The position numbers and the translations under genes are program-made. A DNA stretch of 64,000 nucleotides from Alphaproteobacteria bacterium (GTDB lineage Bacteria; Pseudomonadota; Alphaproteobacteria; UBA2966). Shown piece after piece: positions 43,961 to 64,000 of the stretch (position 1 is the first letter of the stretch; each line of letters opens with the position of its first letter). The stretch spans positions 1,088,001-1,152,000 of the forward strand of contig OZ219856.1 of NCBI GenBank assembly GCA_964291395.2, read 5' to 3'. The notes under the pieces are model-generated. The model was not told the origin of the DNA. It ran no database searches and was given only the letters and a program-made list of their open reading frames with translations.

Positions 43961-45319
43961 CTACGCCCACCTGGAGAGCAGCTCTTCCTTCATGGCCCTG
44001 ATGCGTTCCCCGATGGCTTGGTCGCGGGGCGGCCCCGGAGGCTCTTCCGCGGCCAAGACGATATCCGTCGCGCGGCGGCCCGCCTCGGCAACCAAAGCAC
44101 TGTCACCTTCGTTTCTGAGCGGAATCCGCAGGACCGAGTCGAACGTGTACGTCGCGCGGGCGTCCCAGCCGTTTTGCGGCGGGTGGAGGTCGGGCTCGGA
44201 CTCACCGCGCAACGCCCGCCGAAATTGACGGCGCATCATCATCACGCCCGTATCAGTCCAACCCGGATGCTCGCGCCCATGGTCGGGCAACGGTCCCTGG
44301 CTGACGAGCACTTCCCAGTCGCCCGGATTCCGCTGCATCTCTTCGTAGTCACGGTGCATGGTCTGTCCAGGCGCGAAGTCAACGATCTCCTTGCCGCATT
44401 CCTCGGGCTTGCCGAAGCCGTGCGGATCCAGCGCTTCGGAGAAGTGGCGATAACCAAAGATCATGCAGTGGTTGTCGTCGATCGGTACGGTCCAGCGGGT
44501 CAACGCCGATCCCGTGTAGAATTTCTCCGCGTCGCCCTGTTCGAAGAGGGCGCCGGCCTGGAAAAAGCCGGGCAACAACGCATGAATGCAGCGCACCCAT
44601 ACCAGGTCGTCGAGTCGGCGGCTGGTGACGTAGAGGCAACCGTGTCCGTTGTCGGTCTCCCGGAATTCGACCTCCGGCATCACGTCCATCCGGGGCGATA
44701 GCTGATACTGATTGTTCCGGCTGTGCAGGAAAACGATGTGGGCCGGATCCATGATGTTTTCCTGAACGTGCAACCAGTTGCACGAATGCCAGATCGAGTA
44801 CGGCACCAAATCGTCGTCCGGCTGGAGATAGGCGTCGTATATGGGAAACCTCGGTTTTCGATCGGGGGGACCCAAGTAGGCGAACACCAACCCGCGATAT
44901 TCCCGCACGGGATAGGCACCGTGGCGGAACGAGTCCTTCAACCGAGACTCCGGAGGCTCGCCCGGTGTGTCGAGAACTGCGCCGTCGACATCGAACAGCC
45001 AGCCGTGGTAGCAGCAGCGTAGGCCACGCTCCGACACGATGCCGTATTCGAGTGACGTGCCCCGATGCGGGCAGTGGCGATGGAGGACGCCCAACCGCCC
45101 GGACTTGTCACGGAACAGGACGAGGTCTTCGCCGAGATGCCGAACGGCCAACGGCAAATCGGTCAGTTCCGATGACAGACACACCGGATGCCAGAACTTT
45201 CGGAGATATTCTCCCGCTGCGGTGCCTGGACCCGTCTCGAGCAGTTCGTCGTCGTGCTTCTTGGGAAGTCCTGCCGAGAAATATCCGCCGTATGCCTGGC
45301 TTGGCGCCACTTCGCCCAT
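43961..45319 (-). CDS. Rieske non-heme iron oxygenase (phthalate dioxygenase/VanA-like subunit)
   Basis: CPHRG...CCYHGW Rieske ligands; ENIMDPAHIVFLH mononuclear Fe motif. Confidence 0.92.
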   Translation of the reverse strand: MGEVAPSQAYGGYFSAGLPKKHDDELLETGPGTAAGEYLRKFWHPVCLSSELTDLPLAVRHLGEDLVLFRDKSGRLGVLHRHCPHRGTSLEYGIVSERGLRCCYHGWLFDVDGAVLDTPGEPPESRLKDSFRHGAYPVREYRGLVFAYLGPPDRKPRFPIYDAYLQPDDDLVPYSIWHSCNWLHVQENIMDPAHIVFLHSRNNQYQLSPRMDVMPEVEFRETDNGHGCLYVTSRRLDDLVWVRCIHALLPGFFQAGALFEQGDAEKFYTGSALTRWTVPIDDNHCMIFGYRHFSEALDPHGFGKPEECGKEIVDFAPGQTMHRDYEEMQRNPGDWEVLVSQGPLPDHGREHPGWTDTGVMMMRRQFRRALRGESEPDLHPPQNGWDARATYTFDSVLRIPLRNEGDSALVAEAGRRATDIVLAAEEPPGPPRDQAIGERIRAMKEELLSRWA

Positions 45320-45560
45320 ATGGGTTCCGACTCGCCGTCTGATCCTGTCGCCAGCGTAACCCACGATGGCATTCCGGGCAAAGCACCCGCCAGCCTTCCA
45401 AGGCGGTCCGATATTCAGACCGATCGAGCGTTGTCGCGAGGACCGCTAGCTGCCGTTGCATGAAGACACATTGAGGAAGTTTTGTTAACCGATTGTATAA
45501 AATGCGAAAAATGGCATTTCCACTGTTGCCATGCATCCTCGATCCGCAGATCATTTTCAC

Positions 45561-46304
45561 ATGTGGGCACCTGAGAGCCTCGTGATCGTCGCCGCGACCT
45601 TCTTGATCGCCGGCACCGTGAAAGGTGTGGTTGGCTTGGGTCTGCCGACTATTTCACTCGCCCTGTTGACGGCGGCATTCGGCCTCACGGAGGCGATGGC
45701 GTTGATGCTGATCCCGTCTTTTGTCACCAATGCTTGGCAGGGAATGGTTGGCGGCGCCTTATCCGAGATCCTGCGGCGGCTGTGGCCATTGCTGGTCGTC
45801 GCTTGTCTGGGCATTTGGATGGGGGCTGGGATCCTTGCGAAGTCGGATGCGCTTCTGCTCTCCGGGCTGCTCGGTGCTGTGCTGTGCCTCTACTCGTCGA
45901 TCAGTCTCACGTCGGTGCGGGTTCCGGCTCCGGGCGCACGTGAGAAATGGCTGTCGCCGGTCATCGGGTTGATCAATGGAACTCTGACAGGCCTTACGGG
46001 CTCGTTCGTCGTACCCGCTACGCTCTATTTGCAGGCCTTGGGGCTCGACCGCAATGTTTTGATCCAGGCCATGGGGGTGCTCTACACCGTTTCCACGGTC
46101 GCTTTGGGCATTGCGCTTGCGGGTAATCGATTGTTGCCCCAGGATTTGGGTGTCATTTCGGTGGTCGCGGTGCTTCCGGCGCTCGCCGGCATGGTGGTCG
46201 GCCAGCGCGTGCGCCAATCGTTGTCGGAGACCGCCTTCTGCAAGGTGTTCTTCAGCTCACTGCTGGTCCTCGGACTCTACATCATGGGCCGAGCGTTCAT
46301 TTGA
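45561..46304 (+). CDS. TauE/SafE family sulfite exporter
   Basis: AGTVKGVVGLGLP, TNAWQ, GTLTGLTGS; about 8 TM segments. Confidence 0.88.
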   Translation: MWAPESLVIVAATFLIAGTVKGVVGLGLPTISLALLTAAFGLTEAMALMLIPSFVTNAWQGMVGGALSEILRRLWPLLVVACLGIWMGAGILAKSDALLLSGLLGAVLCLYSSISLTSVRVPAPGAREKWLSPVIGLINGTLTGLTGSFVVPATLYLQALGLDRNVLIQAMGVLYTVSTVALGIALAGNRLLPQDLGVISVVAVLPALAGMVVGQRVRQSLSETAFCKVFFSSLLVLGLYIMGRAFI

Positions 46305-46568: not shown

Positions 46569-47273
46569 ATGATGAACAAGATCGTCAACAGCCTCAGGGA
46601 GGCCATCGCCGACATTCACGATGGCGCCGTCATCCACGTCGGCGGCTTCGGGATGGCGGGCAGTCCGATCGACCTGCTCCACGCGTTGGCGGAGCAAGGC
46701 GCCAAGAACCTTACGATCGTCAGCAATAACGCGGGCGTCGGGCGGGTCGGCATCGCCAAGCTGTTGTCCACCGGGCAGGTCGGCAAGGTCGTGTGTTCGT
46801 TTCCGCGTCAGGAAAACTCGACGATCATCGACGATCTGCACCGCGAGGGAAGAATCGAGCTGGAATTGGTGCCACAAGGGACGTTGGCCGAGCGCATTCG
46901 GGCGGCCGGTGCCGGAATCGGCGGTTTTTACACGCCCACGTCCGTCGGCACTCCTCTGGCGGCGGGCAAGGAACGTCGCACATTCGACGGCAAGGAGTAC
47001 GTCTTGGAGCTCCCGATCCACGCCGATTTCGCGCTGGTCAAGGCAGAGCAGGCGGACCGCTGGGGGAATCTCGTTTACCACAAGGCGCAGCGGAATTTCG
47101 GGCCGCCGATGTGCATGGCAGCCAAAACCACCATCGTGCAGGTGCGGACCATCGTCGATCTGGGGGAGCTCGACCCCGAGATCATCGTGACGCCGAGCAT
47201 CTTCGTCGATCGGGTCGTCGCCGTGCCCAACCCGCTCAGCGAGCGCGAGCTGGTCGCCCAAGAAGGAGCATGA
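46569..47273 (+). CDS. pcaI: 3-oxoacid (3-oxoadipate-type) CoA-transferase subunit A
   Basis: GGFGMAG, SNNAG, CSFPRQ, PQGTLAERIRAAGAG, RNFGP. Confidence 0.8.
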   Translation: MMNKIVNSLREAIADIHDGAVIHVGGFGMAGSPIDLLHALAEQGAKNLTIVSNNAGVGRVGIAKLLSTGQVGKVVCSFPRQENSTIIDDLHREGRIELELVPQGTLAERIRAAGAGIGGFYTPTSVGTPLAAGKERRTFDGKEYVLELPIHADFALVKAEQADRWGNLVYHKAQRNFGPPMCMAAKTTIVQVRTIVDLGELDPEIIVTPSIFVDRVVAVPNPLSERELVAQEGA

Positions 47274-47277
47274 AGAC

Positions 47278-47952
47278 ATGACGGAGCGTCTAGACCGAAC
47301 TCAGATCGCCTGGCGCGTGGGCCGGGACATTCCCGACGGTTCGTTCGTCAATCTTGGGATCGGTATGCCGGAATTGGTGGCGAATTATTTGCCGGAGGAT
47401 CGCGAGATCGTCTTCCAGAGCGAGAACGGCATTCTCGGCATGGGGCCGCGGCCCGAGGCGGGGGAGGAGGACGAGGAGCTCGTCAACGCCGGCAAGAAGC
47501 TGGTGACGCTGTTGCCCGGCGGGTCCTTTTTTCACCACGCCGACTCGTTCGCCATGATTCGCGGCGGCCATATCGATATTTGCGTCCTGGGTGCCTTCCA
47601 GGTGTCGAAGACGGGGGACCTCGCGAATTGGACGACGAGCATGGACGCGCTGCCGGGTGTCGGCGGCGCCATGGATCTCGTGGCTGGTTCGAAGCGTGTG
47701 TTCATCATGACGACGCACACGACAAAGAAGGGCGATCCCAAGATCGTCGAGGAGTGCACGCTGCCGCTCACGGGCAAGGAGTGCGTGTCCACCGTCTATT
47801 CGGATCTGGCGGTGATCGATTTCGGGCCTGACGGTCCGATCGTCCGAGAGAAGCTCGAGGACCTCGAATTCGACGAGCTTCAGGACAAGACCGGAGTGCC
47901 CTTGCGTTTGGCCAACGACTGGAAGCCCTTGCAGGCTCCGGCCCTCGATTAG
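47278..47952 (+). CDS. pcaJ: 3-oxoacid CoA-transferase subunit B
   Basis: VNLGIGMP, SENG (catalytic Glu), SFAMIRGGH, GGAMDL. Confidence 0.8.
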   Translation: MTERLDRTQIAWRVGRDIPDGSFVNLGIGMPELVANYLPEDREIVFQSENGILGMGPRPEAGEEDEELVNAGKKLVTLLPGGSFFHHADSFAMIRGGHIDICVLGAFQVSKTGDLANWTTSMDALPGVGGAMDLVAGSKRVFIMTTHTTKKGDPKIVEECTLPLTGKECVSTVYSDLAVIDFGPDGPIVREKLEDLEFDELQDKTGVPLRLANDWKPLQAPALD

Positions 47953-48123: not shown

Positions 48124-50559
48124 ATGGCCAGTGACAGGGCGAAGCCAAGTAGTTTGGGTGCTGAACCGGCGGAGAGCGGAGGGGCGGTCGAGCCGTCGTT
48201 CCGGAGTGCCCTCCCGCACTTCCTGCCGCTGGCGGTCTTCCCGCTGATCGTCAACGCCGCGATTCACGGCGGCTGGTGGATCGCGGCTCCCTTCGCCTTC
48301 TTCGCCCTTCCGGGGCCGCTGGATATCGCGTTCGGTGCTGACGAGCGAAACATGGATCCGGTCAAGACGCCGGAAAGCCGGCTGCTCTGGTATGAGCTGC
48401 CGGTTTGGGGATGGGCGTTCCTCTGGCCGGTGACGTTCGTATTCGTGCTCTGGCAAATCCTTGTCGCCGGCCATCTCGCGATCTGGGAAGCCGCTTTGAT
48501 GACCGTCGTGCTGGCCACCGAGGCCCAGGCGGTCTTCATCGTCGGTCACGAACTGGTCCACCGGCGCGCGACGTGGGAGCGGCGTCTGGGCGAGTTTCTG
48601 CTCGCGTCCGTCTCATACCCTCAGTACGCCACGGAGCATGTCTATATTCACCATGCTCTCGTCGGCACGCCGCTGGACGTGGGGTCCGCGCCCAAGGGCC
48701 AGAGCATCTGGCGGTATTTCCCCCGCGAAGTGGCGAGCAACCTACTCGGCGCCTGGAAGGTTGCGCGCGACCGGCTCGCGCGCCGCCGCTTGCCGGTCTG
48801 GCACCACACCAACCCGTTCTGGCGCTACGGCATCGAAACCGCCTTCTGGTACGCGTTGATCTATTGGCTGGGCGGTCCGTGGGCGATCCCGGTCTATGTC
48901 GTCATGTGCCTCGGCGTCGTCTTCTCGATGAAGATCAGCAACTATATCCAGCACTACGGTTTGCGCCGCGTCCGTCTGCCCAACGGCCGGTTCGAAAAGG
49001 TCCGGCCCCGTCATTCCTGGAGCACTGACTGCAGGTTCAGCAACTGGATGTTCTACAACATGCAGCGGCACCCGGACCATCATGCCGTGGCGAGCCGGCG
49101 CTACCCGCTGTTGCAGCACCACGCCGGGAACGAGTCGCCGCAACTGCCGGGAGGCTACGCCAAGATGTTCAATCTGGCCGTCCGTCCGAAACGCTGGTTC
49201 GAGACGATGGATCCCTTGGTCGACGGCTGGCGCGCGCGCTTCTATCCCGAGGTCGACGACTGGAGCGCCTACGACAGTCCGGTCTCCGCGGCGCGTCCGG
49301 AGGCCTTCGACGCGATCGTCGAGATCTTTGGCGCCGCGCCGCGCCTCGCCGCATGGATCGAACGCAACCCGGAACTGCTCGAGAGTCTCCAGGACAGGGA
49401 ATTCACCGACCTCGATCTCCCGGAGGGTTTCGGACCGGACCCGGAAACCGAGGCGGTCGCCCGACGGGGCCTGACGCGCCTCTACTGGACGCACGAGTTT
49501 GGCTCTTCCGAAATGAAGGAGCGGATCGCCGAGATCCCGGTTCAGGACGTGGACGACGCGGTAGACACCGTGCGGAACTGGTCGAACGACAAGGCGTTCC
49601 AGATCGGCATGCATACCTTGCGTGGCAACCTGTCGCCGGTCGAGGCGGGAACGGCGTTGTCCAACGTCGCCGAGGCCTCGATCTCCGCCGTGTTGTCGGC
49701 CGTCACGGAGGACTCCGCCCACAGGCGCGGACCGAGCGGTGAAGGCGGTGTCGCGGCAGTCGTTCTGGGCGAACTGGCCAGCGGGGAAGCGGCACCCGGC
49801 GCCGAGCTCGATGTCTTTTTCGTCTATGTAGGCGCCGCCGTCGATCGCAAAGCCCTGTGCCGGCGCTTCCGCGAAGCCCTGGCCGGTCTGTCCCGCGACA
49901 GCCTGCTGTTCGCCCCGATGCCGCGCGGCGCCGGTAAGGAGCGGGCCGCGTGGTCTCTCGACGATTTGGCGGACCATTGCCGGACTGGCGCGCTTCCGGA
50001 TCTGACTCGGACACGTCGTGTCTTCGAATTCGGCGAGTCGGGAATCGGAAGGCGGTTCGACGACGCACGGCGCGAAAGTCTTGCTCATGGGGCTGCTCGC
50101 GACGCGCTCATCGCGGAGTTGCGGGACGGGGCCGGGCGCGCGGTCGAACCGGGCCTCTCGTCTCTCGACGACATGCGGGGCGGCCTCCGGGATGTCGAGC
50201 GCGCCGCCCGGTTGCTGCGATTGACCCATACCGGAAACGACCCGGATGACCCGGCACCCACCGCCGCCTCGGTCTTCCGTGGCGCCGGTGCCGGGCGGCT
50301 CGCGGACGCCGCGACCCTGTGGCGCGGCCTGCGGGGCATTCTGCGGCTGGTCGGAGGGGACGGTTTCGCGGTTGAGGCAGCGGGTCCGAAGGTCAAGGCC
50401 GCCGTCGCGAGGGCCTGCGGGGCGGAAGATTTCGACGCGCTGACCGCCGCAGTCCGCGATACGGCCGCCTCCGCCTCCGCCGAAATCGATACCCTTGTCG
50501 GAAGGAATGTCTCCCCGGCTGGGAGCGACGCCGGTTCCGAAGCGTCCGGTCCGTCTTGA
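48124..50559 (+). CDS. Fusion of an AlkB-like membrane di-iron oxygenase/desaturase and a GlnE-like nucleotidyltransferase module
   Basis: N-terminal half: TM helices with HELVH, EHVYIHH, NYIQHYG, QRHPDHH. C-terminal half: AVVLGELASGE-x5-ELDVFFVY and RGGLRDVE, resembling GlnE GKLGGxE-x4-SDLD and GGLxDIEF. Confidence 0.82.
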   Translation: MASDRAKPSSLGAEPAESGGAVEPSFRSALPHFLPLAVFPLIVNAAIHGGWWIAAPFAFFALPGPLDIAFGADERNMDPVKTPESRLLWYELPVWGWAFLWPVTFVFVLWQILVAGHLAIWEAALMTVVLATEAQAVFIVGHELVHRRATWERRLGEFLLASVSYPQYATEHVYIHHALVGTPLDVGSAPKGQSIWRYFPREVASNLLGAWKVARDRLARRRLPVWHHTNPFWRYGIETAFWYALIYWLGGPWAIPVYVVMCLGVVFSMKISNYIQHYGLRRVRLPNGRFEKVRPRHSWSTDCRFSNWMFYNMQRHPDHHAVASRRYPLLQHHAGNESPQLPGGYAKMFNLAVRPKRWFETMDPLVDGWRARFYPEVDDWSAYDSPVSAARPEAFDAIVEIFGAAPRLAAWIERNPELLESLQDREFTDLDLPEGFGPDPETEAVARRGLTRLYWTHEFGSSEMKERIAEIPVQDVDDAVDTVRNWSNDKAFQIGMHTLRGNLSPVEAGTALSNVAEASISAVLSAVTEDSAHRRGPSGEGGVAAVVLGELASGEAAPGAELDVFFVYVGAAVDRKALCRRFREALAGLSRDSLLFAPMPRGAGKERAAWSLDDLADHCRTGALPDLTRTRRVFEFGESGIGRRFDDARRESLAHGAARDALIAELRDGAGRAVEPGLSSLDDMRGGLRDVERAARLLRLTHTGNDPDDPAPTAASVFRGAGAGRLADAATLWRGLRGILRLVGGDGFAVEAAGPKVKAAVARACGAEDFDALTAAVRDTAASASAEIDTLVGRNVSPAGSDAGSEASGPS

Positions 50560-52874
50560 GTCCGCCGGCGCACCTGCCGCGTGGAACCCTGAAGAAGGCC
50601 GCCGTCGCGGACCTCGGTACGATCGAGGTGCCGGTGCTGACGCCGCATTTCGAATTTCGATCGATCGAAGACGGGCAGGTGCTCCTGCTGTCCGAAACGT
50701 TCAACACGTTGCTCCATGGGCGGATCCTTTGCGATCTGCTGCCGCTGCTCGACGGCAGGCGCTCGCGGAACGACATCGTCTCCGCGCTTGCCGGTTCGCA
50801 TTCGGAGTCTGACGTTCTGACCGCGCTCGCCTCTCTCGCGGCCAAGGGCTACGTCGTCTCGGGCGAATACGCCATGGAACGGGGAGCGGCAGCGTTCTGG
50901 TCCTCCCTGGGCGCGTCGCCGCGCTGGGCCGAGGAACGCTTGGCGGCGGCGAGGGTGGCTGTCGTCGGCGACGACGGCCGTCTCGCCCGGCCGCTAGACG
51001 TCATGGGCGTGGACGTGGGTGCGGACAGCCCGACGCTCTCGGTCATCGTCTGCGTCGACTATCTCGACGAACGGCATGACGCCGTCAACCGGCGCCATAT
51101 CTCCTCCGGCGCACCGTGGATGGCGGTCAGGCCGAAGGGCGTGCAACCCCTCTTCGGCCCCGTCTTCCGGCCCGCGGAGCAGGGCCCGTGCTGGGCTTGT
51201 CTGGCCCACCGCCTGCGTGGCCACCAGGAGGTCCACACGTTCCTGCGCAACGTCGCCGGCGAAGACACCGCTTTTCTGCCCCGTGCCGCCGAGCCCGCCG
51301 TTGTGGACGCGGTATACGGCCTCGTCGCCACCGAAATCGCCAAGTGGCTGGTTCTCGAGGAGGCGGCGCCCCTTCACGAGCACGCGATCACGCTGGATGT
51401 GAGTCATCTGAAGGCCGAGCACCATGCCGTCATGCGCCGTCCGCAGTGTTCCGTCTGCGGCGACGAGGCATCGTATCGCACCGACCGGCCGGCACAGCCA
51501 GTGCGACTCCAACCGAGCCCGAAAGGCGTCTGCAACAGCGGCGGCGTGCGCTCGGTATCGCCGGAAGAGACTCTCACGCGGTATCGCCATTTGATCAGTC
51601 CCGTCAGTGGTATCGTGACCTGGGTTGCCCGCGCCACGGAGGAGACCGATCCCTGGCTGCACGTCCACTGGGCCGGTAGCAATCTGGCGCTCCGGATCAA
51701 GAATCTGAGCTCGCTCAGGCGCAGCCTGCGGAGCAAGAGCGCCGGCAAGGGGAGCACGGCGAGCCAATCGGAGGCGAGTGCGCTCTGCGAGGCGATCGAA
51801 CGCTATTCCAGTGCCTTCCACGGCGACGAAATTCGCCGCCGCCGGCGATTGTCAGACTTCGCGGCGGCGGGTGAGGCGGAGGCGGTCCACCCCAACGATG
51901 TCCAGCTCTTCAGCGGTCGGCAGCTGGATCATGCGGAGGAGATCAACGCCCGCGGCCATCCCTACAACGTTGTCCCGCCACGCTTCGACTCCGAGAGGAA
52001 TGTCGACTGGTCGCCCGTGTGGTCGCTCACGCAAGGCCGGCATCGTTATCTGCCTACGTCCATGCTCTACGGCATGACGCCGGAACAGCGCGGCGATTCT
52101 GGCCTCTGGGCGGACTCCAACGGCTGCGCTGCCGGCAACACGCTGGAGGAAGCCATCCTGCAGGGGTTTTTCGAGCTGGTAGAACGCGACGCCTTCGCCA
52201 TCTGGTGGTACAACCGGCTTCGCTTGCCCGAGGTGAATCTGGAAAGTTTCGGAGATTCCTACTTGGCGTCGGCCGCCGACTACTACCGCCGCCATCATCG
52301 CGACATGTGGGTGCTGGACGCGACCAGCGATCTCGGCATCCCCGCCTTCGTTGCGCTCTCGCGCCGCACCGACGTCGAGACGGAGGACATCATCTACGGT
52401 GCGGGCGCGCATTTGGACCCGCACGTCGCGGCGCTCCGCGCGGTGTGCGAGATGAACCAGTGTTTGACCTGGGTCCCCCGCCCCGGGGATGCTGCCGCGC
52501 GCTACGGCGTCGACGATCCGATGTGTCTTTGGTGGTGGAAGAACGCAACTCTCGCGGACCATCCTTGGCTGGCGCCGGCTCCAGGCTCCGCACCGCGCGG
52601 CAGGTCGGACTATCCGGTTCCCGTTACGGCGGACCTGCGGGAAGACGTGGAGCGCTGCCGTGCATTGGTGGAAGCCAGGGGCATGGAATTCCTGGTCCTC
52701 GACCAGACGAGGCCCGACGTCGGCATGCCGGTGGCGCGCGTGATCGTGCCCGGTCTGCGCCACTTCTGGGAACGCTTCGCGCCGGGACGCCTCTACGACG
52801 TGCCGGTTGAGATGGGGTGGCGGGACGGTCCGCTCGACGAAGCAGATCTCAATCCCGTTCCCGTCGTCGCGTGA
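50556..52874 (+). CDS. Fused RRE/E1-like/YcaO cyclodehydratase (TOMM type)
   Basis: N-terminal winged-helix-like segment (LLPLLDGRRS...LAAKGYV); GPVFRP..GPCWAC and CSVC; SAGKG, SALCEAIERYS, SNGCAAG, ELVERD; C-terminal NPVP. Confidence 0.92.
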   Translation: MSPPAHLPRGTLKKAAVADLGTIEVPVLTPHFEFRSIEDGQVLLLSETFNTLLHGRILCDLLPLLDGRRSRNDIVSALAGSHSESDVLTALASLAAKGYVVSGEYAMERGAAAFWSSLGASPRWAEERLAAARVAVVGDDGRLARPLDVMGVDVGADSPTLSVIVCVDYLDERHDAVNRRHISSGAPWMAVRPKGVQPLFGPVFRPAEQGPCWACLAHRLRGHQEVHTFLRNVAGEDTAFLPRAAEPAVVDAVYGLVATEIAKWLVLEEAAPLHEHAITLDVSHLKAEHHAVMRRPQCSVCGDEASYRTDRPAQPVRLQPSPKGVCNSGGVRSVSPEETLTRYRHLISPVSGIVTWVARATEETDPWLHVHWAGSNLALRIKNLSSLRRSLRSKSAGKGSTASQSEASALCEAIERYSSAFHGDEIRRRRRLSDFAAAGEAEAVHPNDVQLFSGRQLDHAEEINARGHPYNVVPPRFDSERNVDWSPVWSLTQGRHRYLPTSMLYGMTPEQRGDSGLWADSNGCAAGNTLEEAILQGFFELVERDAFAIWWYNRLRLPEVNLESFGDSYLASAADYYRRHHRDMWVLDATSDLGIPAFVALSRRTDVETEDIIYGAGAHLDPHVAALRAVCEMNQCLTWVPRPGDAAARYGVDDPMCLWWWKNATLADHPWLAPAPGSAPRGRSDYPVPVTADLREDVERCRALVEARGMEFLVLDQTRPDVGMPVARVIVPGLRHFWERFAPGRLYDVPVEMGWRDGPLDEADLNPVPVVA

Positions 52875-57158: not shown

Positions 57159-59513
57159 GTGGCTCCAAGTCCTGTGGACAAGCGCGGCATGGCAAGAGAG
57201 CAATTCGCAACGCGATTTGTCGAACGGGTGCTCGCGGCCCGTCGGCTGGTCATCTTGACCACGCTGTTCTTGGTTGCGATCGCGTCGAGCGGTATTGCTC
57301 TGCTCGAATTCTCTGCCAACTACCGCATCTTCTTCGACGAAGACAATCCGCAGCTTCTAGCGCTGGAAGCGCTGGAGAATACCTATGGGAAGAACGAAAA
57401 CATCGTATTCCTGGTTGTTCCGGACGATGGTGACGCCACGTCGCAAAGCGCACTCTCGGCCGCCGTCTGGCTTACGGAAGCCGCCTGGCAGACACCATAT
57501 TCGAGGCGCGTCGACTCGCTCGCCAATTTTCAATACACGACCGCCGACGGCGATGATTTGTATGTGCGGGATCTTGTTGATCCACAAGAACTGACCCGAG
57601 CCGAGGCGCGGTCGCGAATCCGTGCCGCCGCTTTGTCCGACCCGCGTATCGCAAGCAGTATTCTAGCCCTAAATGGTGATGTCAGCGTTGTAAACGTTAC
57701 GGTTGAACTGCCGGAAGAGGGCCTGTTGGACGCCGTGGCCGAAGTTGCCGAATTCGCCAGATCGGTCGCTGCGGAGGCAGAAGAACGATTTCCCGACATA
57801 GACCTCCGCATCGTCGGCACGGTCATGATCAACCAAACCTTTTTAGAAGCCTCGATCAGCAGCCAGATGATCTTCCTGCCTGCAAGCCTTCTCCTCATGG
57901 CCTTGGTTCTTGGCGTCCTCACCCGGGGCTGGGCGGGGGTGGTGGCGACTGGGTTTGTCATCGTCTTTTCCATTCTCACGTCGGTGGGCCTGGGCGTATG
58001 GGTCGGTTTACCCTTTTCTCCGCCCATCTCGCCGGCACCGACCATCGTGTTGATGATTGTCGTGGCGAACTGCGTCCACCTATTGGTGGCTTTGCAGCAG
58101 CGTCTGCGTGCTGGGGATTCCAAGCACGATGCCATCGTCGAATCCGTCAGGCTCAACCTGCATCCGGTGTTTCTGGCGAGCCTCACGACGGCGCTTGGAT
58201 TCTTGAGTATGAACTTTTCCGAAGTACCGCCCTATCGTCATCTCGGTAACTTCGTCGCTTTCGGTATCGCCGCCTCCTTCATTCTCTCCGTCACCTTTCT
58301 GCCGGCCCTGCTTTCGCTTCTCCCGATTCGTGCCGCAAAGGACCGACGGCTCCGCGGACCCACAATGAATCTCTTGGCGGATTCTGTGCTGCGCTACAGA
58401 AAGGCGCTAATTTGGGGATGGTTGGCGATTGTGCCCGTGATGATTCTGGCCATTCCGCGCAACGAGCTTAATGATGTCCTGGTTCATTTCTTCGATGAGG
58501 GCGTTGAGTTTCGGCAGGATACGGATTTCATGGACGAGCGCTTGAGCGGCAATACCCTGCTCGAATACTCGTTGGAAGCATCTACCGAGGGCGGTGTCAC
58601 CGACCCCCTTTTCCTCGCTCAGGTTTCGAACTTCGCCGACTGGTACCGTGAGCAGCCCCCTGTACGCCACGTGGCGGTCATCACCGATACCTTTCGGCAA
58701 CTCAACAAGAGCATGCATGGCGACGACCCGACCGCCTACCGGATTCCGGAAAGCAAAGAGTTGGCGGCACAATACCTGTTGCTTTACGAGCTCTCGCTTC
58801 CGCAGGGTCTGGACCTGAACAATCAGATCGACAGATCTAGATCGGCCACGCGAGTGACGATATCGGCGGAGACACTTGATTCACAAGAGGTGCTCGAACT
58901 GAACGCGCGTGCCGAGGCCTGGCTAAAGGAAAACGCGCCGCATGTAGCCGGCGTCAACAGCACCGGTCCCGCGGCGCTGTTCGCCTACATCGGGCAGCGC
59001 AACATCCGCGCCATGCTGGTCGGGACAATGGTCGTGCTCCTGGCCATTTCCGCGATTCTTCTCTTCGCCTTGCGATCACTGCGGCTGGGCTTGATAAGCA
59101 TCGTTCCCAATTTGGTTCCCGCCGTGCTGGGCTTCGGCGTCTGGGGATTGACGGTCGGACAGGTAGGACTCTCGCTATCTGTCGTGGTGGCCATGACCGT
59201 AGGCATCGTTGTGGACGATACGGTACATTTCCTCAGCAAGTATCGCCGTGCGCGGCGTGAATACGGCCAGGGCCCCGAAGAAGCGGTGCGTCACGCTTTT
59301 GATACGGCTGGCCGGGCCCTGGTCACGACGACGGTCGTGCTGGTGGCTGGATTCTTGATATTCGTGTTTTCGCCGTTCGTTCCCACCGCGCAGGTTGGGG
59401 TCTTGACCGCGATGATTATTGCCTTTGCGCTCGTTGCCGACCTGACGCTCCTGCCGGCGCTGTTGACGACGGTGGACCGGACTTCCGCGGAGCGGGCCGC
59501 GCTTGCGACCTGA
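57159..59513 (+). CDS. MMPL/RND family transporter
   Basis: Two repeats of 1 TM + periplasmic loop + 5 TM; LASLTTALGF, GIVVDDTVHF. Confidence 0.92.
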   Translation: MAPSPVDKRGMAREQFATRFVERVLAARRLVILTTLFLVAIASSGIALLEFSANYRIFFDEDNPQLLALEALENTYGKNENIVFLVVPDDGDATSQSALSAAVWLTEAAWQTPYSRRVDSLANFQYTTADGDDLYVRDLVDPQELTRAEARSRIRAAALSDPRIASSILALNGDVSVVNVTVELPEEGLLDAVAEVAEFARSVAAEAEERFPDIDLRIVGTVMINQTFLEASISSQMIFLPASLLLMALVLGVLTRGWAGVVATGFVIVFSILTSVGLGVWVGLPFSPPISPAPTIVLMIVVANCVHLLVALQQRLRAGDSKHDAIVESVRLNLHPVFLASLTTALGFLSMNFSEVPPYRHLGNFVAFGIAASFILSVTFLPALLSLLPIRAAKDRRLRGPTMNLLADSVLRYRKALIWGWLAIVPVMILAIPRNELNDVLVHFFDEGVEFRQDTDFMDERLSGNTLLEYSLEASTEGGVTDPLFLAQVSNFADWYREQPPVRHVAVITDTFRQLNKSMHGDDPTAYRIPESKELAAQYLLLYELSLPQGLDLNNQIDRSRSATRVTISAETLDSQEVLELNARAEAWLKENAPHVAGVNSTGPAALFAYIGQRNIRAMLVGTMVVLLAISAILLFALRSLRLGLISIVPNLVPAVLGFGVWGLTVGQVGLSLSVVVAMTVGIVVDDTVHFLSKYRRARREYGQGPEEAVRHAFDTAGRALVTTTVVLVAGFLIFVFSPFVPTAQVGVLTAMIIAFALVADLTLLPALLTTVDRTSAERAALAT

Positions 59514-59665: not shown

Positions 59666-60217
59666 ATGTTCAATAGTCCGTTTGACTCATTTCACAATAC
59701 CGTTGCCGAAGCAAAGGAAGAGCGTGAACAACTCGACCGGCTGCTGACGATTTCCACACCGCGGGAGCGTCTGCTTGTCGCCGTCATCGCTCTCTTGTTG
59801 TTCGTCCTCGCGGCATGGCTCTTCTTTGGCAACGTAGCCCGTAGCGTTGCGGTTGACGGCGTACTGGTCGAGCTTGGCGCAAACTTGTCCGAGGGCAATC
59901 GGACCGTGCAAGCCCTCGTCTGGGTGGAGAGCGATGTCGCGCCGCACATCGAGGCTGGCATGCCGGCGGTAATAGAGCTAGCCATGACGGATGGGGAGGC
60001 GGACACGCTTGACGGAGAGGTCGACACGATTGCCGCCGTACCCTTGTCCGAGGGGCTAGCAGAATTCGGGTCCGCGGCCCCAGTGTCCGTTTACCGCGTC
60101 GATATCGCGCTCGATGAAGGCCTAGATATTGCTTCCCTTGCGGGTAGGAAATGCCGGATCGTCATCGAACTCGGCAGGCAATCTCCGGTCGCACTTTTCA
60201 GAATGAGGCGATCGTAA
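59666..60217 (+). CDS. Short NHLP-type bacteriocin secretion (HlyD-like adaptor) protein
   Basis: EQLDRLLTISTPRE + TM + WLFFG..V.VDGVL N-terminus and C-terminal C...I....QSPVALF, as in NHLP secretion proteins; only 183 aa. Confidence 0.75.
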   Translation: MFNSPFDSFHNTVAEAKEEREQLDRLLTISTPRERLLVAVIALLLFVLAAWLFFGNVARSVAVDGVLVELGANLSEGNRTVQALVWVESDVAPHIEAGMPAVIELAMTDGEADTLDGEVDTIAAVPLSEGLAEFGSAAPVSVYRVDIALDEGLDIASLAGRKCRIVIELGRQSPVALFRMRRS

Positions 60218-60218
60218 A

Positions 60219-62429
60219 ATGCGGCCGGGCGCTTCCAACAAGGCAAGCGACAAGGCCGTATCGGAACTCTCGAAACGAAGGGTAATCACGCCAATTCTGT
60301 TGCAGATGCACGCGACAGAATGTGGTGCCGCCTGCCTCGGCAGCATACTGGCCTACTTCGGGCGCTGGGTGCCGCTTACCGAATTGCGCGAAAAGTGCGA
60401 GGTGAGCCGAGACGGTAGCAGCGCCGCGAGCATCTTACGCGCCTCCAGACACTATGGTCTCGAATGCAGCGGACTCAGCGTACGCGCCGATCAACTGGAA
60501 AAGCTGCAGTTACCTCTGATTGTGTTCTGGCAATTCAGCCATTTCGTCGTCCTCGAAGGGCTCGATGGCCGTAATTATTATCTCAATGACCCGGCCACGG
60601 GGCGACGCAAGCTTTCCGCCGAAGAATTCAACAGGGGCTACAGCGGAATTGCGCTGCGATTCAAGCGCGGCGCCGAATTCAAGCCCGGCGGCGAGTGGCC
60701 CGGCTTGTTCGAGCAATTGAGCACCTTGCTCACCGGATCATGGAGTGTGCTTGCCGGGGCGATTGCATGCGCATTCATGTTGACGTTACTGGCACTTGTG
60801 GTTCCCGCATCCCTCAGTGTCTTCGTGGACAACGTCCTGGAAGAGCATGGGCCCTGGGGCGGATTGGTGGCGGCCCTGCTTGGCGGCGGTATCCTGGTAT
60901 ACGTCCTGTCCTTGCTCAAGCACCGATTTCTGCAGCGGCTCGCAATCCGGATTTCGGTGATTGGCTACAACCGAGGCTTGTCGCGGCTGCTGCGGTTGCC
61001 GGTGGAGTTTTTTGAATACAGGTTGGTCGGCGATTTGACTGATCGAGTCTCGTCCGTCGACAGAATCGCGAAGAATCTGACGGACCAGTTTCTTGTCCTC
61101 GTTGTCGACATGGCAATGAGCGCGGTGTTGCTCGTCGCGATGTTGACCTACGATGTCCTGCTCACGCTGATTGTGCTGTTGCTGGCCCTTCTGCACGGAG
61201 TACTGGCCTACTTCCTCAACGCGCTCCGGGCCGTTCGAAGCCAGGCGATGAGGCGCGAACAGGGATTGTTGATCGGCGTCGGCATGCAGATGTTGAGTCA
61301 TGCGGACAACCTGCGCATGACGGGATCGGATGACCGGTTTTTTTCGCGCTGGAGTGGTCAGCAGGCTCGCGAACTGCATGCGCGCCAGCTCTATGCCGAA
61401 CTGGCCTCCGTCAATACCGCCCTTCCGGGCCTGGTCGCCGCGCTGCGAAGCGCGGCGATCTTGGGCATCGGGGCAAGTATGGTCATGACTGGAGAAATGA
61501 CCCTGGGGGCGCTGGTTGGGATCTATATCTTGGCAGAGATGTTTCTGGCGCCTATCGGGCGCTTTTTGGAGTTCGCCGACAAACGCCACGCGCTCGAAAC
61601 CGATTTGCAACGACTGGAAGACATCTCCAAAGCCGCTGAAGACCCCGCTTTCGGCCGCCGAAGTCGGGAATCGGAGTCGATCCCCACGTTCAACGGCCGG
61701 CTCCAACTTGCAGGTCAACTCGAACTGAGAAACGTCACCTTCGGTTTCAACAAGAGCCGACCGCCTCTGATAAAGGACTTCAACCTCGTGATAAAGCCGG
61801 GGCAGCGGGTTGCCGTGGTCGGTCCCAGCGGTTCCGGCAAGTCGACCTTGGCGCGTCTGGTTTCAGGAATCTATCAGCCTTGGTCAGGCGAAATCCTGCT
61901 TGATGGCTATCCTCGGGATGAGATTCCCGAGGAAGTGCTGCGGCGGTCCATTTCCATGGTGGATCAGGAAGTCGTGCTCTTTTCTGCGTCTCTGCGCGAC
62001 AACATCACGTTGTGGAACCCGGCTGTTCCGGATGAAGTCATCATCGCCGCGACGCGAGATGCCCGCATCCATGACGAAATCCTGCATAGGCCCCTCGGAT
62101 ATTCGACCCTCGTCGAGGAAGGCGGGGCGAATTTCAGCGGCGGCCAGCGGCAACGGCTGGAAATCGCCCGTGCGCTGGTGGGCAATCCGACAGTGCTCGT
62201 TCTGGACGAGGCGACCAGCGCCCTTGATGCCGCGACAGAGGAATATGTCGACGATGCCTTGCGGCGTCGCGGTGTCACCTGCCTGATCCTGGCGCACCGG
62301 CTGAGCACCGTGCGGGATTGCGACGAAATTATCGTGCTCGACAAAGGTGACGAGGTGCAGCGCGGCACGCACGACGAGTTGATCGCGGATCGGGATGGCA
62401 CGTATTACAAGCTGGTCAAGTCAGGCTGA
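60219..62429 (+). CDS. NHLP-family peptidase-containing ABC transporter (C39 peptidase, permease, ATPase)
   Basis: QMHATECGAAC (Cys), WQFSHFVV (His), LNDPA (Asp); GPSGSGKST, FSGGQRQRLEIARAL, LDEATS. Confidence 0.95.
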   Translation: MRPGASNKASDKAVSELSKRRVITPILLQMHATECGAACLGSILAYFGRWVPLTELREKCEVSRDGSSAASILRASRHYGLECSGLSVRADQLEKLQLPLIVFWQFSHFVVLEGLDGRNYYLNDPATGRRKLSAEEFNRGYSGIALRFKRGAEFKPGGEWPGLFEQLSTLLTGSWSVLAGAIACAFMLTLLALVVPASLSVFVDNVLEEHGPWGGLVAALLGGGILVYVLSLLKHRFLQRLAIRISVIGYNRGLSRLLRLPVEFFEYRLVGDLTDRVSSVDRIAKNLTDQFLVLVVDMAMSAVLLVAMLTYDVLLTLIVLLLALLHGVLAYFLNALRAVRSQAMRREQGLLIGVGMQMLSHADNLRMTGSDDRFFSRWSGQQARELHARQLYAELASVNTALPGLVAALRSAAILGIGASMVMTGEMTLGALVGIYILAEMFLAPIGRFLEFADKRHALETDLQRLEDISKAAEDPAFGRRSRESESIPTFNGRLQLAGQLELRNVTFGFNKSRPPLIKDFNLVIKPGQRVAVVGPSGSGKSTLARLVSGIYQPWSGEILLDGYPRDEIPEEVLRRSISMVDQEVVLFSASLRDNITLWNPAVPDEVIIAATRDARIHDEILHRPLGYSTLVEEGGANFSGGQRQRLEIARALVGNPTVLVLDEATSALDAATEEYVDDALRRRGVTCLILAHRLSTVRDCDEIIVLDKGDEVQRGTHDELIADRDGTYYKLVKSG

Positions 62430-64000
62430 TGCAGGACACAAGGCCGGAATACGCATCGATAGCCGAACTCGCCGCTCGCTCCGGTACATCCGTGCCCTGC
62501 GCCGGCAACTTGCCGGTGAAACTCGACGACCCGGATGGTGTCTGGTTCATTGACCGGGGCGCCGTCGATCTGTTCTTGGTCGAATTCAAGGACGGGGTGG
62601 AGCAGGCGCCGCCGCAGCACCTGCTGCGCCGCGAATCAGGCAGGTTGCTGCCGGGTGTCGCACCAGACGAACAGGGCGATGACAAAGACACTACGCTCAG
62701 CCTGATAGCCAAAGGATTGCCGGGTACCCTTCTGAAGCGCCTGCCGGCATCCTTGCTGTCCGAGATCCATCCAACGGAACTGGCGGAACAGACCGATACT
62801 TGGCTGACCGCCATTACCGACACGCTTTCGCGTTTCGTAGGCCGCATTCCGCGTCCGACTGCGCTGGCCGAACCCGGTCTGACCCGGACTCTGGCCCCTT
62901 GTACGCTATCCGTACGGCGCGGCGTGGTGTGGGTATCCGAACCGTCGCGCGGCGCAAGCCTGTTCATGGATATGGTCGATCAGGCGGAACTGGCCGAGGC
63001 GAGCGGTCCGCACGAAGCCGTGATACCGCTGACGCGGACAAGCTGGCTCACCTTGCTCGACGAGGCAACAGTTTCAGGCAAGTCAACCGAAACACTGGCG
63101 GAGCAAGGCATGCTACTGCCGGCGCTTGCTTCCTTTCACGCGGTTGCTTTCGCCTTGGAACGCCTTAACCGTCGACTGGCCGTGGTCGATGATGCGAATC
63201 TCGAACGCGCTCGGATATCCAGCCGCCGCAAGGCCGAAAAAGCTGCCCGACAGCGGCTTTTCAATATCTATGACCACCCGATTGACCGGGATGCCGACGT
63301 CGAGGACACAGCTCTGGCGGATGCCCTGCACATCATCGGCCGCCATCAAGGAATCGATTTCAGGATTCCAGTACGCTCGGGACCTTCCGATTCTCCGGTC
63401 GGCCTCGTCGACGTTCTTGACGCGTCAGGTGTGCGCGCTCGGCGCGTGCGATTCAAGGCCGAGGGCAACTGGTGGCGCGGCGACAGCAACGCGATGCTGG
63501 CATTCCGCGCCAAGGACGGCCGGCCCGTTGCGCTGCTGCCGGGAATGTTCGGGCGCTACCGGGAAATCGACCCGGTCAGTAGGCGCAGTGTCCGGATTAC
63601 GGCGGATCGCGCCGACGCGCTGGAGGAAGAAGCTTGGATGTTCTATCGGCCATTACCGTCGGGGAACGTGAAGCCGTTAGACCTGCTGGGTATCGCCCTG
63701 CATGGATCGGCCCCGGATCTGGCGCGGCTGGTGATTGCCGGGCTTCCGGGCGGCCTGATCAAACTGCTGCCGGCACTCGCGCTTGGATTCGTTGCGAATC
63801 ATATAATGGCGGGCGGAAGCGTCGGAGCGCTCTATGCCGTGGCCGTGACGCTGGCGGGGTTTGGCCTGCTCGGCGCACTGCTTCACCTGCTTCAAAGCAC
63901 GGCGATGATGCGGCTCGAGGGGCGCTCGGCGTCGCGGGTCGAAGCCGCCTTCTGGGACCGCCTCATGCGCCTTCCGCCAAGCATTCTGCACCGTCAACCA
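62429..64000 (+). CDS. Second NHLP-type ABC transporter subunit, N-terminal part (runs off the window edge)
   Basis: ATG overlaps the upstream TGA. Manual translation: ...LDDPDGVWFIDRGAVDLFLVE..., SGVRARRV, WWRGD, PVALLP, AWMFYRPLP, AAFWDRLMRLP. Not in the ORF track. Confidence 0.9.
   Translation, partial: MQDTRPEYASIAELAARSGTSVPCAGNLPVKLDDPDGVWFIDRGAVDLFLVEFKDGVEQAPPQHLLRRESGRLLPGVAPDEQGDDKDTTLSLIAKGLPGTLLKRLPASLLSEIHPTELAEQTDTWLTAITDTLSRFVGRIPRPTALAEPGLTRTLAPCTLSVRRGVVWVSEPSRGASLFMDMVDQAELAEASGPHEAVIPLTRTSWLTLLDEATVSGKSTETLAEQGMLLPALASFHAVAFALERLNRRLAVVDDANLERARISSRRKAEKAARQRLFNIYDHPIDRDADVEDTALADALHIIGRHQGIDFRIPVRSGPSDSPVGLVDVLDASGVRARRVRFKAEGNWWRGDSNAMLAFRAKDGRPVALLPGMFGRYREIDPVSRRSVRITADRADALEEEAWMFYRPLPSGNVKPLDLLGIALHGSAPDLARLVIAGLPGGLIKLLPALALGFVANHIMAGGSVGALYAVAVTLAGFGLLGALLHLLQSTAMMRLEGRSASRVEAAFWDRLMRLPPSILHRQP

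Follow-up and report, generated by a model that had tools for sequence, protein, structure and literature searches.

A putative AlkB-like oxygenase fused to a degenerate GlnE half is paired with the SrpC-type cyclodehydratase gene of an srp proteusin cluster

A pair of genes encoding a putative membrane oxygenase fusion and a YcaO cyclodehydratase was found in a 64,000-nucleotide stretch of an alphaproteobacterial genome of the UBA2966 lineage (assembly GCA_964291395.2, contig OZ219856.1, positions 1,088,001 to 1,152,000; hereafter the window). The first gene joins an AlkB-like domain to one half of a GlnE-like adenylyltransferase, and, as judged by sequence, the 2 genes correspond to the oxygenase-fusion and cyclodehydratase genes of the known srp cluster. 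A sequence-only reading of this DNA had presented them as a tailoring unit for a peptide that is synthesized ribosomally and modified post-translationally (RiPP), and as an undescribed system. The RiPP tailoring context was borne out, with a nitrile hydratase leader peptide (NHLP) precursor and a SrpC-type YcaO in the cluster. The system itself is not undescribed, as the pair is part of the srp proteusin cluster known from the literature, with its SrpE precursor (LCCCW core), SrpC, and SrpI. Of interest is the AlkB::pseudo-GlnE enzyme, which is uncharacterised and encoded within the conserved core of a cryptic RiPP pathway that is widespread in sponge symbionts. We propose, with a probability of roughly 45%, that the fusion acts as an oxygenase on the hydrophobic, possibly prenylated srp core, and that its GlnE-derived half is non-catalytic.

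An AlkB-like domain with conserved histidine boxes is fused to a degenerate GlnE-like half

The fusion gene (48124..50559, + strand) starts with ATG and encodes 811 residues, as supported by the list of open reading frames (ORFs), Pfam, NCBIfam, homologues, and structure matches. The predicted combination of 4 histidine boxes with a GlnE-like module was confirmed by the ORF list, Pfam, and alignments: residues 121-349 match FA_desaturase (E 5.1e-26), and residues 462-571 match GlnE (PF03710, E 5.4e-9). Residues 54-367 (48283..49224, +) additionally align to solved chains of alkane 1-monooxygenase (8f6t_A, E 2.5e-50; 8sbb_A, E 5.6e-40), which places the domain in the AlkB clade, beyond a generic desaturase. 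An AlphaFold2 model of the fusion, with a mean predicted local distance difference test (pLDDT) score of 71 that was higher over the GlnE-like half, matched 8f6t and 8sbb in Foldseek, and the modelled helices of the AlkB-like half fit a core of 6 transmembrane helices.

Residue conservation was scored over an alignment of 81 fusion sequences. The 4 histidine boxes, all on the + strand, read HELVHR (residue 142; 48547..48564), EHVYIHH (residue 171; 48634..48654), NYIQHYGL (residue 273; 48940..48963), and QRHPDHH (residue 314; 49063..49083). Their histidines (H142 and H146; H172, H176, and H177; H277; H316, H319, and H320) are each found in 81 of the 81 sequences, which argues for retained catalysis. 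We infer that the AlkB-like half is a membrane-embedded di-iron oxygenase with an intact catalytic site, and conclude from this conservation that it is under selection for catalysis. The 4 boxes and about 314 aligned residues are shared with the AlkB-AlkG protein of Fontimonas thermophila (8f6t, 8sbb), which likewise has a cytoplasmic partner fused to its C-terminus. In that protein, however, the partner is a rubredoxin and the context is alkane catabolism, whereas here the partner is a GlnE-like half and the context is a RiPP cluster.

The second half of the fusion, residues 383-795 (49270..50508, +), resembles the C-terminal, adenylyltransferase half of GlnE, as indicated by PF03710 and by Foldseek (1v4a, 3k7d, 6yx5); the matches of the AlphaFold2 model include GlnE (1v4a, 3k7d) and the GlnE-like AMPylase DrrA. 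The source genome also encodes a bona fide GlnE (L102:2592-5624; 1075 bits with NF010706 against a cut-off of 724), whose C-terminal half shares 39% identity with residues 383-811 of the fusion. The helical flanks known from the adenylyltransferase domain (3k7d) and the adenylyl-removing domain (1v4a) of GlnE are conserved. In contrast to full GlnE of about 950 residues, the fusion has only one of the 2 tandem halves, and with NF010706 it reaches just 75.2 bits.

A further difference from GlnE lies in the catalytic carboxylates, which are degenerate or deleted. The nucleotidyltransferase motifs of the own GlnE read GKLGSRE ... GSDLDLLF ... LYDVDMRLRPSG, while their counterparts in the fusion read GELASGE ... 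GAELDVFF ... LLFAP----MPRG. At 49765..49815 (+), LGELASGE is thus followed by GAELDV where the own GlnE has GSDLDL. Of the 81 fusions, 14 have an acidic residue at the first carboxylate position and 66 at the second; the motif of the third (DVDMRLRP in the own GlnE) is deleted together with 4 residues, and, relative to the own GlnE, 13 residues are missing after the second strand. The same degeneracy was seen in distant representatives of the fusion. These losses make nucleotidylation of the precursor, which the sequence-only reading had offered as one role for this part, unlikely. AMPylation of the precursor by a catalytically active GlnE-like half would fit the GlnE- and DrrA-like fold and the retained glycine-serine motif G-x-L-A-S-x-E, but set against the lost carboxylates and deletions we regard it as highly improbable. 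Rather, we conclude that this half is, by its sequence, a pseudo-enzyme that may still bind nucleotides; it is well conserved across fusions although its active site appears dead. Separately, a further GlnE-like frame (about 996 residues) was noted at G000:C1:1286936-1288165, besides the NF010706-positive GlnE on contig 3 of the source genome.

The fusion gene is coupled to a SrpC-type cyclodehydratase gene

The downstream gene (50556..52874, +) encodes 772 residues from a TTG start and was assigned from Pfam, NCBIfam, and homologue loci. Its predicted order of a RiPP recognition element (RRE), an E1-like domain, and a YcaO domain was confirmed throughout. A winged helix-turn-helix domain of the RRE type (residues 29-100, 50640-50855) matches PF21084 (E 8.4e-11, 42.5 bits against a cut-off of 24.1). 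It is followed by an E1-like leader-binding domain of thiazole/oxazole-modified microcins (TOMMs; TIGR03882, residues 186-354, 51111-51617, 145.3 bits against 36.9), and by the YcaO domain (PF02624, residues 396-735, 51741-52760, E 8.5e-97). Residues 397-769 also match the SagD-type family TIGR03604 (269.7 bits against 219.25), and the protein ends in ...DLNPVPVVA. The SagD-type YcaO, the E1-like domain, and the RRE, all above their cut-offs, are features shared with azoline-forming TOMM YcaOs.

GC content at third codon positions is 0.81 in both ORFs. The stop codon of the fusion and the TTG of the YcaO gene overlap by 4 bases (TTGA, 50556-50559), so that the overlap that had been claimed holds for the ORF limits. 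The TTG at 50556, however, is only the earliest possible start; as homologues align from about residue 9, the exact start of the YcaO protein, and hence the overlap, is unproven.

To describe the genomic context, relatives were collected with a search of one genome per species, in which they were encoded in 473 stretches. Locus statistics refer to the best 80 of these (60-75% identity), and neighbours were counted within 8 kb. The YcaO gene lies directly downstream of the fusion in 69 of the 80 loci (66 under a 40% coverage rule). Among the remaining 11, one (L070) has no downstream sequence, and 10 have no YcaO within 8 kb. One of the 69 is decayed: in a Poriferihabitaceae genome, the YcaO is present as fragments (L066:10571-11320) with 38-56% identity over short pieces. 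Of the 69 loci, 13 have a projected gap of zero or less between the 2 genes, 37 have one of 1-50 bp, and 12 have one of 51-150 bp. A precursor gene within these gaps was ruled out, as neither NHLP-like nor Cys-rich ORFs occur in the 7 gaps longer than 150 bp. In 2 loci, an ORF resembling an S-adenosylmethionine-dependent methyltransferase lies between fusion and YcaO on the opposite strand (L014:10430-11575 and L015:10433-11632).

An NHLP precursor gene of 83 residues is found in 40 of the 80 loci. The pair is a conserved and tightly coupled unit that occurs with NHLP precursors and NHLP transporters.

The fusion is widespread and not an assembly artefact

A word-indexed protein search returned 951 proteins at E <= 0.001. 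The best 120 of these all measured 781-829 residues, most with both Pfam families. An exhaustive search of representatives returned 3453 proteins, with full-length fusions down to 31% identity, and a metagenome scan with an alignment of distant fusions (31-47% identity) yielded only srp-like fusions (L103-L106) and stand-alone AlkBs.

The sequence-only reading had raised the possibility of an assembly chimera absent from other genomes. This can be set aside, since all 80 loci carry the fusion and independent contigs cross both junctions. The AlkB/GlnE junction near 49270 is bridged by contigs from X16 (49041-49598) and X3 (49041-49381), and the fusion/YcaO junction at 50556 by contigs from the same 2 runs (X16 49585-51968; X3 50173-51295). 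In addition, metatranscriptome run X19 contained near-identical contigs inside both genes, although contigs from an RNA library are no proof of transcription. The stretch or part of it was found in runs of 16 studies, and the holders listed were mostly sponge metagenomes.

By their record titles, the 80 loci stem from Alphaproteobacteria, Gammaproteobacteria, Acidobacteriota, Nitrospirales, Nitrospinota, "Deltaproteobacteria"/Syntrophobacterales, and Binatia, and many are from sponge-project isolates. Poriferihabitaceae and Azotimanducaceae were placed in Gammaproteobacteria, which we take to be their class. Among 41 relatives of the source genome, the full fusion was found only in the source genome and in one genome of the same genus. 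GC content is 66-68% at 48-52 kb of the window (65-68% at 48-54 kb), compared with 60-62% in the upstream flank and 58-62% beyond 54 kb (0.585 at 56-62 kb), a patchwork that is consistent with acquired DNA. The trees of fusion and YcaO, labelled with taxa from record titles, are broadly congruent, with phyla intermixed. Together, the spread, the GC contrast, and the congruent trees fit a horizontally shared accessory module.

The pair belongs to the srp proteusin cluster

The srp (sponge-derived RiPP proteusin) cluster was reportedly first described by Nguyen and coworkers (JACS 2021). In later work, the core of the SrpE precursor is LCCCW, SrpC, a YcaO protein, converts its 3 cysteines to thiazolines, and the C-terminal Trp is brominated by the flavin enzyme SrpI, for which thiazolines are the physiological substrate and azoles are not required (PMC10858898, PMC10286304). 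A preprint reports that srp RiPPs are transcribed across phyla in sponges and share an ITEEQL leader motif (bioRxiv 10.1101/2023.06.09.544420).

The same features recur here. The source genome's own 83-residue NHLP precursor (L101:9850-10101) ends in ...EEQLEAISAGLCCCW, carries the ITEEQL leader motif, and scores 65.8 bits with TIGR03793 against a cut-off of 50.9 (G000:C1:1159865-1160083). In 37 of the 40 loci with a precursor, it ends in ...EEQLEAISAG/LCCCW, with LSCCG, LCCCGV, and LCCCGW as variants. Besides this precursor with its LCCCW core and (I/L)TEEQL motif, the cluster shares with published srp clusters an E1-YcaO cyclodehydratase, a flavin-dependent Trp halogenase, NHLP-type exporters, and an occurrence in many bacterial phyla of sponge microbiomes. 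The YcaO gene can thus be regarded as an SrpC orthologue, an assignment made by domains and cluster context, not sequence-to-sequence. By analogy with the published work, its product would bind the NHLP leader of the 83-residue precursor and convert the 3 cysteines to thiazolines.

The Trp halogenase occurs in 35 of the 80 loci. The source genome's own halogenase-like gene, a 424-residue ORF (L101:12592-13866), was matched to the family of L029:12561-13835, and it is the latter member that matches PF04820 (E 1.8e-45). The export genes follow the pair within the window, all on the + strand. These comprise an MMPL/HAE3 transporter of the resistance-nodulation-division (RND) type (57159..59513), a recurrent srp neighbour that is MMPL/HpnN-like in 29 of the 80 loci, and a short HlyD-like NHLP secretion protein (59666..60217; 32 of 80). 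They are followed by an ATP-binding cassette (ABC) exporter with a C39 peptidase (ABC1, 60219..62429), which at 844 bits is just under the NHLM_micro_ABC1 cut-off of 853.3 and has C39 ABC counterparts in 41 loci. A second NHLP-type ABC exporter (ABC2, 62429..64000) continues past the window and measures 980 residues in L101. Past the window end follow genes for F436, 2 DUF3237 proteins, a luciferase-like protein, F372, the LCCCW precursor, a LolA-like protein (20 of 80 loci), a DUF1302-like protein, and the halogenase, where F372 and F436 are the names given here to neighbour families of 372 and 436 residues.

F372 was found in 55 of the 80 loci, straight after the YcaO gene in 43, and the run of fusion, YcaO, and F372 genes is part of the conserved srp core. 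The own copy (371 residues, L101:8591-9703 = G000:C1:1158591-1159703) lies past the window end. F372 showed no match in Pfam or NCBIfam. Its predicted fold (pLDDT 90), however, gave Foldseek matches that, among those listed, were all ABBA aromatic or indole prenyltransferases (template modeling scores 0.4-0.55), with Trp_DMAT as the atlas lead, and the model suggests that the srp product may be prenylated via F372. F436 is encoded upstream of the fusion in 46 loci. The source genome's copy (428 residues, L101:3563-4846 = G000:C1:1153563-1154846) fuses an NHLP leader domain to a region resembling squalene-cyclase/prenyltransferase repeats; this leader could target the protein for export through the C39 ABC transporter or for docking to the YcaO protein. 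Judged by gene order, F436, the fusion, and F372 might correspond to srpA, srpB, and srpD, a tentative naming that is not used further here.

The arrangement in the source genome differs from other srp clusters. The cluster is rearranged and spans about 28 kb, starting at window position 48124 and reaching some 11.9 kb beyond the window. About 18 kb separate the pair from F372 and SrpE downstream, and the pair is followed by unrelated genes for a short-chain dehydrogenase/reductase and a PanB-like protein. Directly before F372 lies a remnant of a YcaO 3' end (L101:8354-8578 = G000:C1:1158354-1158578) that is 44-55% identical to residues 698-772 and contains one TAG. This remnant marks the ancestral YcaO-F372 junction and is a scar of the rearrangement that parted the pair from the other srp genes. 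Upstream of the fusion, the window encodes a Rieske oxygenase (43961-45364, -), a TauE-like exporter (45531-46304), and a 2-subunit CoA transferase (46569-47952); these genes are not conserved beside the fusion in other loci.

A second NHLP locus was found in a genome of the same genus (L183/L184, G001:C1:1894001-1934000). It contains 2 E1-YcaO genes (62% identical), 4 tandem NHLP precursors with Ser/Thr/Cys-rich cores, and NHLP ABC exporters, but neither the fusion nor F372 nor a halogenase, and is a different proteusin cluster.

The order of genes also recalls cyanobactin biosynthesis, in which a PatD/TruD heterocyclase is combined with an ABBA prenyltransferase. Both have a fused E1-YcaO heterocyclase of about 770 residues that carries an RRE at its N-terminus, and after it an ABBA-prenyltransferase-like protein. 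Unlike cyanobactins, srp clusters use an NHLP leader and export of the type performed by peptidase-containing ABC transporters, no PatA/PatG proteases were seen, and an AlkB-type oxygenase stands where cyanobactins have an oxidase domain that binds flavin mononucleotide (FMN).

A rival reading gives the fusion another function. As a missing azoline oxidase, it could convert SrpC thiazolines to thiazoles, or hydroxylate them ahead of a dehydration, and so replace an FMN-dependent SagB-type dehydrogenase. The SagB-type family TIGR03605 was not found in the source genome; of 5 other srp genomes, 3 likewise gave no match, and 2 encode it at a distance of about 0.4 to 1.2 Mb from the srp locus. In addition, no other srp gene is coupled to the YcaO gene as tightly as the fusion, an arrangement that echoes pairs of cyclodehydratase and dehydrogenase, and desaturation is an established activity of the enzyme superfamily. 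However, the domain belongs to the AlkB clade, a hydroxylase family; F372 is placed after the YcaO gene as regularly, so that adjacency is unspecific; and the published SrpI substrate carries thiazolines, with no need for azoles. We consider this the main rival to a core-directed oxygenase, and rather unlikely.

Alternatively, the fusion could serve mainly as a membrane scaffold or activator, whose GlnE-like half holds SrpC or SrpE near the exporters while oxygenase chemistry is secondary. The fusion and YcaO genes overlap or lie close together, conservation of the GlnE-like half is high in spite of the dead site, and SrpC on its own was described as weakly active, not purifiable, and giving partly modified products (PMC10286304). 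The invariant histidines of all 81 sequences argue instead for retained catalysis, and we hold this explanation to be very unlikely.

Further srp-like proteusin clusters in sponges are covered in PMC9426513 and PMC11832590, the latter of which notes "several genes of unknown function". The retrieved portions of the srp papers (PMC10858898, PMC10286304, PMC9426513, PMC11832590, and bioRxiv 10.1101/2023.06.09.544420) mention no desaturase, AlkB, or GlnE-like srp gene; the sole "desaturase" mentions in that of PMC9426513 concern an ether-lipid cluster.

A proposed role in tailoring of the srp core peptide

As an oxygenase on the srp core, the fusion would hydroxylate or otherwise oxidise an aliphatic C-H bond of the modified core at the membrane face. 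Such a bond might belong to the side chain of Leu or to a prenyl group added by the ABBA-prenyltransferase-like neighbour. The GlnE-derived half, having lost its nucleotidyl-transfer residues, would act as a cytoplasmic docking or lid module for the structured NHLP precursor, SrpC, or an electron donor, and oxidation would precede export by the C39 ABC and RND/LolA-like systems. A hydrocarbon or isoprenoid theme runs through the neighbouring genes, with the ABBA fold of F372, squalene-cyclase/terpene-cyclase leads for F436, and HpnN-like RND, LolA-like, and DUF1302-like proteins. The prenyltransferase-like F372, the F436 leads, and the lipid-handling exporters thus make a hydrocarbon-like target plausible for an AlkB-type enzyme. 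Co-folding of the fusion with the precursor gave a score of 0.00, but the run had no controls and counts neither way for binding.

Several points weigh against this proposal, in which the peptide is a presumed substrate. The model of the fusion is of medium confidence, and the prenyltransferase assignment of F372 depends on a predicted fold with moderate template modeling scores. Rubredoxin, the usual electron donor of AlkB, was not found as PF00301 in the source genome (98.1% complete) and was present in one of 5 other srp genomes, so that, in a further difference from AlkB, 5 of the 6 srp genomes tested are without a detected rubredoxin. The 62%-identical YcaOs of the other NHLP cluster, found in sister genomes, function without any fusion, and according to PMC10286304, thiazolines are formed by SrpC in E. 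coli in its absence. Full-text literature searches combining desaturase, AlkB, or prenyltransferase with RiPP terms retrieved, within the text they covered, no paper on the fusion gene; the founding paper and its supplements lay outside the search and may already assign it. Finally, one genome (G044, locus L092) encodes a fusion at 66% identity, and a search of this genome with srp queries found neither an srp-type YcaO nor SrpE, so that its fusion is a possible orphan.

The last point bears on whether the fusion leaves the peptide alone and instead oxidises a lipid, a hydrocarbon, an isoprenoid co-substrate, or a membrane component, as part of lipidation chemistry, export, or self-protection. 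Besides G044, the AlkB homology and the reach of full-length fusions down to 31% identity would agree with such a role, as would several loci that are poor in or devoid of further srp genes within 8 kb (none in L035 and L092, a halogenase only in L025-L027). Translational coupling to the YcaO gene across at least 6 phylum-level groups, however, argues against it. Of 5 genomes without an adjacent YcaO, moreover, 4 have an srp-type YcaO and SrpE elsewhere, with the YcaO 11-15 kb away in 2, so that in most apparent exceptions srp genes are present after all, close by or at another genomic site. We therefore consider a role away from the peptide distinctly unlikely.

Taken a step further, the proposal of a core-directed oxygenase becomes more tentative: the fusion may be the first AlkB-family membrane oxygenase to tailor a ribosomal peptide, with its dead GlnE half docking the NHLP precursor or SrpC and feeding the thiazoline-rich, possibly prenylated LCCCW core to the di-iron site.

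Significance for the srp pathway

In 2 studies, srp clusters are ranked among the secondary-metabolite clusters with the widest distribution and strongest transcription in sponge microbiomes, with a product and ecological role that are still cryptic (bioRxiv 10.1101/2023.06.09.544420, PMC11832590). Tailoring by an AlkB-type enzyme would, if true, account both for the poor performance of SrpC alone in E. coli and for the still-cryptic product. Knowledge of the roles of the AlkB-like fusion and of its prenyltransferase-like neighbour is probably needed to reconstitute the real srp product. If the fusion does act on the peptide, membrane AlkB-type di-iron oxygenases would be a new enzyme class in RiPP tailoring, and its GlnE half would be an example of the reuse of an enzyme as a pseudoenzyme.

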